From positions 125,575 to 189,574 of the forward strand of contig JAPLWQ010000002.1 in the NCBI GenBank assembly GCA_026396515.1: DNA of 64,000 bases, given 5' to 3'. Made by a program: the position numbers and the translations under genes. How positions within the stretch are numbered: the stretch's first letter is position 1; every line of letters begins with the position of its first letter. The DNA comes from Candidatus Magasanikiibacteriota bacterium. GTDB lineage: Bacteria; Patescibacteriota; Patescibacteriia; Magasanikbacterales; GWA2-37-8. Below, piece by piece: positions 7,370-10,006 of this stretch. The notes below the pieces were generated by a model. That model had not been told where the DNA came from and did no database searches. It saw nothing but the letters and a program-made list of their open reading frames with translations.

Positions 7370-8377
7370 ATGCGGAGGAAAATATTAAAAACCATTGTAA
7401 TGATGCGAGCCCCTAAATTTCTTGTTATGGGGCTTGTATTTATATTGGCGCCAATCATGGTTTTTGCCGCTACATCCAGCCAAAACCAAAATATGACCAT
7501 AGTTGTTTCCTCAACTCCTCCCGCCGATCATTGCATTGATGGCATGCAAAATTTTGATGAAACCGGGGTAGATTGCGGCGGTTCAACCTGCTCCTCATGT
7601 GGGGGAGGCGGAGGTGGCGGAGGGGCGGTTCTCGCCCAAGTGTCATTTAACGGAAAAGCTGCACCGTACGGCTCAATAAAAATATTAAAAGATGGTATTT
7701 TGGCGTCTACCGGCGCTGCTACGGCAAGCGGCGATTTTAATATTGTCGCCGGAAATTTATCAACCGGCAATTATAAGTTCACAATATATTACGAAGATTC
7801 TGCCGGACGACGATCGGCATCTCTTATTATCAACACTTCAATTAACCAGCGGGGTCAGGCGGTAATCTTCAGCAATATCTTGCTCTCGCCAACCTTAGAC
7901 ACTAATATGAAGGAGGTGAAACGAGGTGAATCAATTACAATATTTGGTGAAGCAACACCTGGCGCGGATATTACGATACGCATTACCGCAGGCAACGGCA
8001 GTGAATTGATATATCACACAACTGCTTTGAGCAACGGAAACTATCAATTTGTTCTTAACACATCGGCGATGGCTCTGGGACAATATTCAATAAGAGTCCG
8101 ATCCGCTCTTGGAACAACAATGCTAAGCGAATATACTTCGCCCATTACATTCACCGTTAGCGAAAAATCAATTATGGAACCACAGGAAAAATGCCCGACA
8201 AAAGGCGATTTAAACAATGATTGCCGGGTAAATTTGGTTGATTTTTCTATCGCCGCCTATTGGTATCATCGCCAAATGAGCCCGTCATTTTTTGCTATTG
8301 AGGCAAGGAAACTTAATGGCGACGGGATTATCAGTTTGGTTGATTTCAGCATTCTTGCTTATTATTGGACAGGGTAA
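7370..8377 (+). CDS. Secreted dockerin-domain protein (Cys/Gly-rich linker, Ig-like beta domains, C-terminal type-I-like dockerin)
   Basis: 335 aa with signal peptide and a GGGGGGGG linker. C-terminus has two Ca-binding dockerin-like segments: DLNNDCRVNLVDFSIAAYWY (fits DxNxD.xVNxxD) and LNGDGIISLVDFSILAYYW. Confidence 0.6.
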   Translation: MRRKILKTIVMMRAPKFLVMGLVFILAPIMVFAATSSQNQNMTIVVSSTPPADHCIDGMQNFDETGVDCGGSTCSSCGGGGGGGGAVLAQVSFNGKAAPYGSIKILKDGILASTGAATASGDFNIVAGNLSTGNYKFTIYYEDSAGRRSASLIINTSINQRGQAVIFSNILLSPTLDTNMKEVKRGESITIFGEATPGADITIRITAGNGSELIYHTTALSNGNYQFVLNTSAMALGQYSIRVRSALGTTMLSEYTSPITFTVSEKSIMEPQEKCPTKGDLNNDCRVNLVDFSIAAYWYHRQMSPSFFAIEARKLNGDGIISLVDFSILAYYWTG

Positions 8378-9294
8378 ATCTTGTGAAAAAAATAATTTTT
8401 TTATTACTCGTCGCATCAATATATTTATTTATAGCAGCAGATGTTTTTGCGGCTGATTTTTTATTTTTTGGTGTTCCACAATCAGTAAATGCCGGCGACG
8501 AATTTAAGATAGATGCCGTTATCGACGCTAAGAAGCTGCCGATTAATGCCCTGTCCGGAAAAATAATTTTTTCTGAAAATTTATTGGATGTAAATCAAAT
8601 TTTAACCGGCAACTCGGGAATAAATTTTTGGATTGAATCGCCAAAAATTTCCCAGCCCGGAACAATTGATTTTTCAGGAATTGTAACCAACGGTTTTGAC
8701 GGAGAATTAGTGCTTTTTTCCGCCATTTTTAAAGCAAAATCACATGGCGAAGCCAATATTGAATATACAGACATTCAGGCCTTATTAAATGACGGAAATG
8801 GAACAAAGGACATTCCCTCGTCAAAAAATATATCCGTAAAAATTACTGTGCCGGCCGAAGGAGAGCCCGCTAAATTATTTACGGCCGTCGACAGCGAACA
8901 GCCGGATGATTTTATTCCTCAAATTGTAAAAACGGCGAATCTTTTTAATGGCGACTATACAATAATTTTTCAGGCGCAAGATAAACAGTCCGGAATTGAT
9001 CATTATGAAATAATGGAAAGAAAAACTTACAGGTTGTTTAATAATGAATTTGAATTTGGAATTTGGAAAAATGCTGAAAGCCCATTTCGGCTCAGCGACC
9101 AAAAATTGCAGAGCAATATTTTCGTTAAAGCGATTGACGAACAAGGGAATGAACGCGTGGCTTATCTTCCGGCTTCAAACCCAATTCTCTGGTATGAAAA
9201 TCGCTTAATTTGGAGTATAATTATATTGATAGCGGCAATTATCTTTGCCTGCGTTCTATTATATGCCAGAAAAAAAGATAAAAACCACCAGTAG
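8365..9294 (+). CDS. Membrane-anchored cohesin-like domain protein 1
   Basis: 309 aa with signal peptide. GDEFKIDAVIDAKKLPINALSGKIIFSENLLDV...GTIDFSGIV...GELVLFSAIFKAKSHGEANIEYTDIQALLNDGNGT follows the cohesin pattern (V.aGd.f.v.v......i....f.l.yd...l.v...G....f.......G.l......F.a....G...i......f.dn.g.). C-terminal TM is IILIAAIIFACVLLYARKKDK. Start overlaps the dockerin gene by 13 nt. Confidence 0.55.
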   Translation: MDRVNLVKKIIFLLLVASIYLFIAADVFAADFLFFGVPQSVNAGDEFKIDAVIDAKKLPINALSGKIIFSENLLDVNQILTGNSGINFWIESPKISQPGTIDFSGIVTNGFDGELVLFSAIFKAKSHGEANIEYTDIQALLNDGNGTKDIPSSKNISVKITVPAEGEPAKLFTAVDSEQPDDFIPQIVKTANLFNGDYTIIFQAQDKQSGIDHYEIMERKTYRLFNNEFEFGIWKNAESPFRLSDQKLQSNIFVKAIDEQGNERVAYLPASNPILWYENRLIWSIIILIAAIIFACVLLYARKKDKNHQ

Positions 9295-10006
9295 TCCCTG
9301 GTTTTATGCGTTCATCATCGCCGGTGCGATGTTTTTCGGCCAAAGCGCGCATGCTGCTTCCTTATATCTATCGCCTTCTTCCGGCTCTTACCGCGTTGGC
9401 CAGACATTTCAAGTGGCAGTTTTCGTTTCTTCGGCTGATCAGGCCATGAACACCGCCCAGGCACTGGTATCATTTCCGCCGGACAAATTGGAGGCGGTAT
9501 CGGTCTCAACAAATAATTCCATTTTCAGTTTAATGGTTGAAAATCCCAGATTTACCAACAACGCGGGCCGGATTAATTTTTCCGGCATTGGTCTTAACCC
9601 CGGCTACGTTGGTTCGCATGGACGACTGGTAACAATCAATTTTAAGGCTAAAAGCATTGGCCAGGCAAAGGTCTCCATTACTAACGGACAATTGTTGGCA
9701 AATGATGGCGATGGCTCAAGCATTCCAATTTCGCTTGGCAGTGGAGCATATACAATTTTAGAAAGAAAAATAGTAGAGCCAGAACTTCTAGTAACAACCA
9801 CGGTTAATATCACCACCTCTACTGTTTGTCCAAAGGATCATCTGCCAAATATATTTCTAAAGATTAATGACTTAATTTTCGACCAGTCGGCACTTCTACT
9901 TTTACTCCTGCTTTTGATGATCATAATACTCGCGGCCATTTCTTTTTGGGGGTTTGCCGAGGCCTTTATTCATGAAAATAAACATCACTTTAAAAGAAAA
10001 AAATAG
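9263..10006 (+). CDS. Membrane-anchored cohesin-like domain protein 2
   Basis: ORF track 9245..10006. Likely start at MPEKKIKTTSSPWFYAFIIAGAMFFGQSAHA (signal peptide). SLYLSPSSGSYRVGQTFQVAVFVSS...ALVSFPPDKLEAVSVS...GRINFSGIG...GRLVTINFKAKSIGQAKVSITNGQLLANDGDGS parallels protein 1. C-terminal TM is LLLLLLLMIIILAAISFWGF plus basic tail. Confidence 0.5.
   Translation: MPEKKIKTTSSPWFYAFIIAGAMFFGQSAHAASLYLSPSSGSYRVGQTFQVAVFVSSADQAMNTAQALVSFPPDKLEAVSVSTNNSIFSLMVENPRFTNNAGRINFSGIGLNPGYVGSHGRLVTINFKAKSIGQAKVSITNGQLLANDGDGSSIPISLGSGAYTILERKIVEPELLVTTTVNITTSTVCPKDHLPNIFLKINDLIFDQSALLLLLLLLMIIILAAISFWGFAEAFIHENKHHFKRKK

Follow-up and report, generated by a model that had tools for sequence, protein, structure and literature searches.

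The stretch analysed here, a 64,000-nucleotide window of contig JAPLWQ010000002.1 (positions 125,575 to 189,574, forward strand; assembly GCA_026396515.1, Candidatus Magasanikiibacteriota bacterium), contains three adjacent plus-strand genes that encode a secreted protein ending in a dockerin module and two small membrane proteins, coh1 and coh2, each with a single cohesin. All coordinates given below are those of the window. The three open reading frames (ORFs) are present at the positions reported in an initial annotation made from the sequence alone, with the start at 8365 given there for coh1 being an alternative TTG start. The trio is organized as follows:

7370..8377, plus strand: dockerin protein, 335 aa, secreted; signal peptide 7370-7468, strand-like segment NMTIVVSS 7490-7513, Cys-rich segment 7532-7600, Gly8 linker 7601-7624, two immunoglobulin (Ig) domains 7634-8161, dockerin 8189-8374
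8383..9294, plus strand: coh1, 303 aa; signal peptide, cohesin 8455-8847, OmpL47-type beta domain 8890-9177, transmembrane (TM) helix 9202-9270, basic tail
9263..10006, plus strand: coh2, 247 aa; signal peptide, cohesin approximately 9392-9712, Thr-rich linker, TM helix 9890-9955, KR tail

Both the Cys-rich N-terminal segment and the Ig-like domains announced by the initial annotation are found in the dockerin protein. Its signal peptide is followed by the four-Cys segment (CIDGMQNFDETGVDCGGSTCSSC) and the Gly8 run (GGGGGGGG); the NCBI annotation uses an alternative start at Met20, giving a 316-aa form. The Ig-like domains span residues 89-264, were modelled with a pLDDT (predicted local distance difference test) above 95 and exceed the Pfam thresholds for two families, Big_6 with 38.3 bits and Big_13 with 32 bits. 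The monomer model leaves residues 36-88 unfolded, which fits a freely extending segment. In the dockerin region, the AlphaFold2 model has helices at residues 289-298, 305-314, and 323-333. The window sequence matches Pfam Dockerin_1 (PF00404) with 17.3 bits, below the threshold of 22.9 for a single sequence; the same model is matched by 89 of the 97 family members at E≤0.01 (best 8e-8), and the family profile matches the solved dockerins 2y3n_B (E=3.8e-5) and 5nrm_B (0.011) as well as 1daq and 2mte. Judged from these profiles, the dockerin assignment is weak for the single sequence and firm at the family level. The first calcium loop is canonical, with D1, N3, D5, N9, and D12 each conserved in at least 96 of 97 sequences (column statistics). 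This loop has all 5 calcium ligands, and the second has 4 of the 5, the acid at position 1 being absent. The module consists of two repeated segments of approximately 22 residues, each with a calcium loop ahead of a helix, that share a near-identical and almost invariant helix motif, LVDFSI(A/M)AY(W/Y)(Y/W), and is thus unusually symmetric; the helices are nearly invariant across classes. A Cys pair occupies loop positions −4 and 6 in approximately 70% of the sequences and −3 and 4 in approximately 20%, and this co-variation implies a putative disulfide staple of the first calcium loop.

The distribution of this module is informative. A motif scan of the 64-kb window revealed only one dockerin. 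When the 65-residue dockerin alone was compared by phmmer with 1.84 billion representatives, 1182 matches were obtained (315 at E≤1e-10), and among the best 150 of the 1182 the module is always located at the extreme C-terminus, in host proteins of up to 683 aa. The dockerin subtype, as far as these best 150 of 1182 matches tell, appears to be confined to one protein family, which argues for a dedicated one-cargo system rather than an enzyme scaffold. No catalytic domain was found by Pfam, NCBIfam, or Foldseek in any of the three proteins, in agreement with the initial annotation, which had recognized none in the dockerin protein and had proposed a non-cellulosomal system. Foldseek searches of the PDB with the full dockerin protein, which cannot reveal a 60-residue dockerin, returned only generic Ig tandems from adhesins and S-layer proteins and no enzyme. 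Cohesin and dockerin modules are the hallmark of cellulosomes and amylosomes, in which a scaffoldin with several cohesins is combined with several dockerin-bearing enzymes, usually with a carbohydrate-binding module. A scaled-down version of such a polysaccharide-degrading enzyme scaffold is nevertheless a most improbable explanation of the trio: each membrane protein has a single cohesin, the dockerin protein carries neither a carbohydrate-binding module nor a catalytic domain, there is one dockerin in 64 kb, and the subtype was never found on long, enzyme-sized proteins among the best 150 of the 1182 matches. We therefore rejected this candidate on the grounds that the trio lacks enzyme and carbohydrate-binding domains, the window has a single dockerin and the subtype is seemingly restricted to one family.

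The cohesin proteins were identified by different routes. coh2 matches Pfam Cohesin (PF00963) with 38.7 bits, above the threshold of 24.1, and coh1, with 13.9 bits, lies below it on its own. The latter is counted as a cohesin because of its profile-profile link to coh2 (hhalign 99.9%, E=3e-35) and its structural model (pLDDT 94; alignment of 108 homologues), which displays the cohesin fold, a nine-stranded beta-sandwich (jelly-roll). The coh2 profile produced no significant match to PDB sequences. The cohesin, dockerin, and Ig folds suggested by the initial annotation are thereby corroborated, through the coh1 model, the Pfam match of coh2, and the family-level dockerin matches. The residues invariant in both cohesin families (N-A..G, the W/L in S.I.F.W, FSG, and L-(L/A)-N-D-G-x-G-T) map to strands 3, 5, 6, and 8 of the model, which we take to be the dockerin-binding face of type I cohesins. 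The second beta domain of coh1 is more conserved than its cohesin and is of the OmpL47 type in 71 of 108 relatives.

Sequence-based prediction assigns a type I membrane topology with a C-terminal TM helix to both coh1 (helix at residues 274-302, tail ARKKDKNHQ) and coh2 (residues 210-231, tail ending in KHHFKRKK). Neither SLH nor LPXTG signals were found in any of the trio proteins, and the initial description of coh1 and coh2 as small proteins (303 and 247 aa) held by a C-terminal TM helix and a basic tail, rather than by SLH or sortase signals, is accurate. The C-terminal TM helix is kept in 77 of 86 coh1-type proteins, and the dockerin protein has a signal peptide only and lacks a TM helix in every locus examined. 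coh1 and coh2 represent two distinct, separately conserved families that are not equivalent. Most coh2-type relatives are longer (480-630 aa); they contain Big_13 Ig domains, and their TM helix is followed by a charged tail of 80-100 residues on the cytoplasmic side.

This long tail is conserved and coiled-coil-like in several related loci (L021, L025, L050, L053, L060, and others), for instance ...RELTxEEEKIxxxLKxDLDxAEKFVRKEIxDIEKE; it matches no family and hints at a cytoplasmic partner. At another locus (L065:6871-9468), coh1 and coh2 form one ORF of 866 aa with two hydrophobic segments, reflecting either a gene fusion or a missing stop codon in the metagenome-assembled genome (MAG).

Homologues of the dockerin protein are numerous, with at least 647 in the protein database and at least 537 relatives confirmed by tblastn among GTDB species representatives. 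Nearly all record titles of the relatives refer to Patescibacteria lineages, including Magasanikbacteria, Paceibacter/Paceibacterota, Parcubacteria, Wolfebacteria, Kaiserbacteria, Nomurabacteria, Campbellbacteria, Uhrbacteria, Komeilibacteria, Portnoybacteria, Veblenbacteria, and Minisyncoccota. The cassette is also present in a cultivated archaeal parasite, Ca. Microsyncoccus archaeolyticus PMX.50 (Minisyncoccota). ORFs were called in 80 related loci and searched with profiles. A cohesin gene lies directly 3′ of the dockerin gene in 75 of 75 loci with enough sequence, genes of both the coh1 and coh2 types are present in 65 of 68, and 12 loci have a third cohesin gene. The dockerin-cohesin gene arrangement is far beyond chance, and the synteny extends across hundreds of genomes.

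Some MAGs contain two copies of the cassette on different contigs (L043 and L044; L037 and L076). The cassette, complete with pilin-like, chaperone-like, dockerin, and cohesin genes, was further found in two MAGs labelled Candidatus Aenigmatarchaeota (DPANN; L005 and L015). These copies are 72%-84% identical at the DNA level to cassettes from MAGs of bacteria or of the candidate phyla radiation (CPR) (L011, L016, and L022), all with approximately 30% G+C, and represent either mis-binning or inter-domain transfer.

In the window, the trio is embedded in an operon (5783-13881) of 8 genes on one strand with intergenic gaps of −31 to +34 bases, which encode, in order, the pilin-like protein, the WxLIP-like protein, the dockerin protein, coh1, coh2, a 321-aa membrane protein, a PilB-type ATPase, and a 382-aa protein. 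The operon is preceded by a divergent promoter region (5607-5782), with the genes for a PamT-like protein and a giant protein transcribed in the opposite direction. Sec signal peptides are predicted on all components. The features surrounding the trio are the following:

2..4732, minus strand: giant secreted protein, N-terminal 1572+ aa, with the C-terminus past the window start (ORF map)
4878..5606, minus strand: PamT-like protein, 242 aa; signal peptide, N-terminal 'SxNY' module, C-terminal pilin-like domain
5641-5613, minus strand: promoter-like site ahead of the PamT-like gene, 11 of 12 positions matched
5783..6430, plus strand: small pilin-like protein, 215 aa; signal peptide, short N-terminal beta-strand segment TQTIVLSVTS, Pam-pilin-C-like domain
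6443..7360, plus strand: WxLIP-like/Pam-chaperone-like protein, 305 aa; signal peptide, C-terminal TM helix 7274-7318
10010..10975, plus strand: polytopic membrane protein, 321 aa, no family assigned (no Pfam or NCBIfam match)
10977..12698, plus strand: PilB/GspE-family secretion ATPase, 573 aa (Pfam T2SSE, E=1.5e-120), a lineage-specific neighbour
12733..13881, plus strand: 382-aa protein with an N-terminal TM helix, no family assigned, last gene of the operon
13945..13976: bidirectional terminator-like hairpin (13 pairs, 9 of them G-C) closing the plus-strand operon

The 'minimal adaptor-scaffold' put forward in the initial annotation is therefore an incomplete description, the trio being the distal part of a larger operon.

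The last three genes of this operon raise the possibility that coh2 works with their products as an accessory of a type IV pilus or a type II secretion-like machine. The genes are co-transcribed with the trio in the window, with gaps of 2-4 bases, and in one related locus (L006) the row of membrane protein, PilB, and 382-aa protein follows a coh2 gene without the dockerin and coh1 genes. However, PilB, the 321-aa protein, and the 382-aa protein (the last always 3′ of PilB where PilB is present) are linked to the cassette in Magasanikbacteria-like loci only, a linkage that the majority of the 80 loci lack, and elsewhere coh2-type genes end the cassette and are followed by unrelated genes. Moreover, no type IV prepilin motif was found within the window. 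We consider this explanation improbable and have largely rejected it because of the lineage-specific PilB linkage and the missing prepilin motif.

The two genes upstream of the trio may connect it to surface fibres. The window pilin-like protein aligns with NCBIfam CPR_Pam_pilin_C (NF058581) over model positions 3-146 of 148, with 14.2 bits against a cut-off of 55, and the same model is matched below threshold by 13 of 20 members of the pilin-like family (best 1e-5). NCBIfam PamT is matched by 6 of the 20, again below threshold (best 1.8e-7), and Pfam SCPU weakly by 4. The family is characterized by the C-terminal motif Y-x-G-x-(I/V)-T-(F/I)-T-A-x-x-N-P. The divergently transcribed 242-aa protein, which aligns with the pilin-like family, matches NCBIfam CPR_pilus_PamT (NF058579) with E=1.8e-7 and 30.8 bits against a cut-off of 240. 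The chaperone-like protein encoded directly upstream of the dockerin protein, which is also predicted to have a type I topology, matches Pfam WxLIP_PGBD with 22.8 bits (threshold 27.3), and 15 of 26 family members match this model. Furthermore, the profile of its family matches the solved Enterococcus faecium EfmWxLIP1 (9i25_C, E=1.7e-4) over approximately 215 residues, nearly the whole ectodomain, and 27 of 32 relatives have a C-terminal TM helix. Searches of NCBIfam with the chaperone, dockerin, and coh1 families matched no PamC/D- or PamR-like model. Large proteins in related loci (for example, of 600-1233 aa) end in the pilin-like domain.

The pilins and dockerin proteins resemble each other at their mature N-termini as well, where they have in common a strand-like motif, [ST]-V-x-V-x-A-x-V; compare the pilin and the dockerin protein of one related locus (L052; SDVTVSATVSTS and NSVDVTATVSST, respectively) or TQTIVLSVTS and NMTIVVSST of the window. 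The best 8-mer score of this motif is 18.3, compared with 13.9 ± 3.5 for shuffles, and in the pilins the motif lies just N-terminal of the region matched by the Pam pilin C-domain model.

A separate N-terminal module with repeated S-x-N-(F/Y) motifs (...STGFQLKGGAGDPAVGRSTSTNYILDNG...) is present in the PamT-like protein (4878-5606, minus strand) and in type II dockerin proteins (see below), such as the long dockerin proteins of loci L023, L043, L048, L058, and L082, and matches no family.

The related loci fall into two contexts. Type I loci, among them that of the window, encode a short dockerin protein (320-370 aa), its gene lies 0-30 bases downstream of the chaperone-like gene, which is itself preceded by the small pilin-like gene, and the first gene usually encodes a protein of 600-2500 aa with a pilin-like domain at its extreme C-terminus. 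In type II, the dockerin protein is longer (430-490 aa), with the 'SxNF/Y' module (as in the PamT-like protein) and FN3, and the upstream genes encode a giant of 2000-3500 aa and a TM protein of approximately 130 aa. Overall, 29 of 65 loci have the chaperone gene immediately before the dockerin gene.

One possibility is that the dockerin protein is a stand-alone displayed adhesin, that is, a ligand-binding protein with a variable head on an Ig stalk, which the cohesins only display and whose neighbours share nothing but regulation. The N-terminal region is highly variable, with heads that include Cys-rich knots, myxo-type disulfide repeats, the PamT-like module with FN3, and GW-repeats, whereas the stalk and the dockerin are conserved, a pattern typical of adhesins. 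The Ig tandem resembles the stalks of adhesins and S-layer proteins, and the trio is kept even in the absence of the pilin and chaperone genes. Against this possibility, the window and about half of the loci have the dockerin gene 0-30 bases behind the chaperone gene within the same operon, the dockerin proteins have N-terminal modules in common with pilin-like proteins, and a large or giant secreted protein is almost always encoded upstream. We regard a free-standing adhesin as somewhat unlikely; nevertheless, with the pilin link missing in about half of the loci and the N-terminal motif being simple, it is a serious competitor.

The giants themselves point to another alternative, in which the trio tethers an S-layer or a giant tail-fibre-like protein independently of any donor-strand pilus. 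Giants of 2000-3800 aa adjoin the cassette in the window and in many other loci. Full-length relatives of the window giant, which did not match any Pfam family, are 2400-3845 aa long and are encoded at the same position beside the cassette. Two inspected type II giants (L057 and L087) carry the Peptidase_S74 tail-fibre chaperone domain, and the stalk of the dockerin protein shows weak similarity to S-layer proteins (SlaB and Sap; Foldseek and NCBIfam). However, the giants are heterogeneous, one having LVIVD propellers and others being domain-free, none of them contains a cohesin or a dockerin, and the window giant is encoded on the opposite strand. This alternative thus appears unlikely.

We favour, with moderate confidence, the interpretation that the trio is a non-cellulosomal cohesin-dockerin module dedicated to non-covalent membrane anchoring, within a locus that encodes a cell-surface fibre or adhesin and is related to the Pam pilus of CPR bacteria and to WxL clusters. 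The Pam pilus comprises pilins with a truncated C-terminal Ig domain, a single-domain tip protein PamT, and FimC-like chaperones with a C-terminal TM helix, with a tail-fibre-like neighbour; the RbmA-like PamR, in which an N-terminal strand is combined with two FnIII domains and a TM helix, has been proposed to terminate the pilus and anchor it in the membrane (Troman et al. 2026, bioRxiv 10.64898/2026.03.03.709456). The present loci resemble Pam in being CPR-specific and in encoding putative small Ig-like pilins and a PamT-like protein, both with sub-threshold matches to the NCBIfam Pam models, a putative chaperone with a C-terminal TM helix, and a tail-fibre-like neighbour. The putative correspondence of the chaperones is one of profile and architecture, a two-domain Ig-like WxLIP homologue with a C-terminal TM helix being compared with the FimC/PapD-like PamC/D. 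Unlike in Pam, the operon lacks a PamR-like TM protein and instead encodes the dockerin protein and two cohesin-TM proteins. The nearest analogue of PamR is the dockerin protein, with its N-terminal strand and two Ig domains, which ends in a dockerin rather than a TM helix. The lineages differ as well: Pam has been reported mainly in Saccharimonadia and Microgenomatia (bioRxiv 10.64898/2026.03.03.709456), whereas the cassette, according to record titles, occurs in Magasanikbacteria, Paceibacterota, Minisyncoccota, and others. The preprint describing Pam (bioRxiv 10.64898/2026.03.03.709456) does not mention cohesin, dockerin, or WxL.

In the WxL clusters of Firmicutes, WxLIP has the architecture DUF916-DUF3324-TM and is predicted to insert a beta-hairpin into WxL domains, which large WxL proteins carry at the C-terminus (Hassan et al. 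2023, PMC10599100). Similarly, the present loci encode a small domain-only protein, a large protein ending in the same domain, and a putative TM-anchored partner with two Ig domains, whose counterpart in WxL clusters is predicted to insert a strand into that domain. By contrast, the Trp-x-Leu motif and Pfam WxL matches are lacking, the hosts belong to the CPR, and the cohesin-dockerin trio is added. Chaperone-usher pili include the SCPU/Csu-type archaic pili and possess terminator subunits such as PapH. The possible donor-strand logic, with a proposed terminator having a donor strand and no acceptor domain, is reminiscent of these pili; however, there is neither an usher nor an outer membrane here, and anchoring is proposed to occur through the cohesin-dockerin contact. 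As for the cohesins, OlpA and OlpC of Clostridium thermocellum are single-cohesin surface anchors that attach to the wall through SLH domains and hold enzymes or scaffoldins, whereas coh1 and coh2 have a C-terminal TM helix and a non-enzymatic cargo. Non-cellulosomal cohesin-dockerin modules have been recognized since the survey by Peer et al. 2009, as cited in PMC10066038. Examples of such modules are the sialidase/NagJ cohesins of Clostridium perfringens and the cohesin of Archaeoglobus fulgidus. The present modules differ from these in that a conserved operon pairs a single Ig-stalk cargo with two different single-cohesin proteins, each anchored by a TM helix, and is linked across Patescibacteria to genes resembling those of pilins and chaperones.

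Under the favoured interpretation, all components would be exported by Sec, and coh1 and coh2 would be retained in the cytoplasmic membrane with a type I topology, so that each presents a single cohesin. The soluble Ig-Ig-dockerin protein would then plug its internally symmetric C-terminal dockerin, in a Ca2+-dependent manner, into the membrane cohesins, as suggested by homology and by the invariant adjacency of the genes, resulting in a membrane-tethered stalk of two Ig domains and a flexible Gly linker. The symmetry of the dockerin may allow alternative or simultaneous binding of both cohesins. At its N-terminus, the stalk might join the rest of the assembly, whether through the giant fibre, the small pilin, or the tip proteins (PamT-like or large). 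The joining end would be the strand-like segment resembling the pilin N-terminus, followed by the lineage-variable head. We infer this joining more weakly, from the common N-terminal motif and its position in the pilin, the unfolded N-terminal region of the dockerin protein, and the architecture parallel to PamR. The membrane-anchored WxLIP-like chaperone would aid assembly, and the dockerin protein would act as a terminator or adaptor, taking the part proposed for PamR with the membrane anchor outsourced to the cohesin proteins. Attachment is a plausible function.

Several observations weigh against this interpretation. All matches to Pam and WxL models are below the curated thresholds; among 20 pilin-like proteins, none matches Pfam WxL or has a Trp-x-Leu motif, and the profile of the family matches no PDB sequence. 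The N-terminal motif is short and compositionally simple, and its within-locus score of 18.3 is barely above the between-locus score of 16.9, so that the comparison gives no evidence of lineage-specific co-variation between the N-termini of pilins and dockerin proteins. The chaperone gene is directly upstream in only approximately 45% of the loci, the rest having the giant and the TM protein of approximately 130 aa, and the pilin link is thus not universal. The second calcium loop has K at position 1 in the window; the family has R/K/Q there, and just 7 of 97 sequences have D. Moreover, the interpretation does not account for the two different cohesins kept for one dockerin, and the pairing of cohesins and dockerin, including its stoichiometry, is itself inferred from homology and synteny.

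A bolder version of the fibre-anchor interpretation is possible, although we put it forward only tentatively. Here, the pilus would be of the donor-strand type, and a cohesin-dockerin contact would stand in for its anchor, be that covalent (sortase), an usher, or a TM helix of its own. The Ig-Ig-dockerin protein would terminate a Pam/WxL-like fibre, its symmetric dockerin would bridge two different membrane cohesins at once, and the conserved cytoplasmic tail of 80-100 residues that coh2 has in most lineages would link the extracellular fibre with the cell interior. Should this prove correct, the cassette would encode the first pilus anchored through cohesin and dockerin, and Patescibacteria would use it widely to attach to hosts.

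Patescibacteria account for a large share of bacterial diversity, most of them are thought to be host-attached, and they have no outer membrane. The cassette thus bears on how these bacteria build and anchor host-contact structures and would extend cohesin-dockerin biology from enzyme scaffolding to the anchoring of pili or adhesins, linking three separately described systems, namely Pam pili, WxL clusters, and non-cellulosomal cohesins. Being widespread, compact, strongly conserved, and present in a cultivated system, it makes the hypothesis directly testable. In addition, the pair would represent a naturally minimal, orthogonal plug-and-socket that could serve surface display. The two membrane proteins have 100%-identical NCBI entries already labelled 'cohesin domain-containing protein [Candidatus Magasanikbacteria bacterium]', and the modules are individually known. 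Nevertheless, our literature search found no paper on cohesin or dockerin in CPR surface systems, and neither is mentioned in the supplements of the PMX.50 metatranscriptome paper. The operon arrangement, the linkage to Pam/WxL-like and giant proteins, and the breadth across Patescibacteria were not found in the literature searched.

The remainder of the window contains several features outside the cassette. Directly past the operon terminator (14024-16540, minus strand) lies a gene whose 839-aa product is homologous to the Major Vault Protein of eukaryotic type (Pfam MVP_shoulder, E=6e-29; Vault_3, E=3e-10), which is unusual for a CPR bacterium and was probably acquired horizontally; this stretch has 62% G+C, compared with mostly approximately 40%-47% across the window. 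A region of approximately 2.5 kb (approximately 29800-32500) at 52% G+C contains only short, Arg-rich, implausible ORFs, and an Rfam search gave no match even at E≤0.01; it may be a decayed gene or an intron-like element, or may encode a large non-coding RNA of a kind not yet described. The 23S and 5S rRNA genes (46118-49296, minus strand) have no adjacent 16S gene, indicating an unlinked rRNA operon. Finally, a row of small secreted or membrane proteins encoded at 57460-62869 (minus strand), at least 2 of which match Pfam T4SS_pilin (59562-60605 and 61970-62869), looks like a Patescibacteria type IV secretion or conjugation-like pilin cluster.

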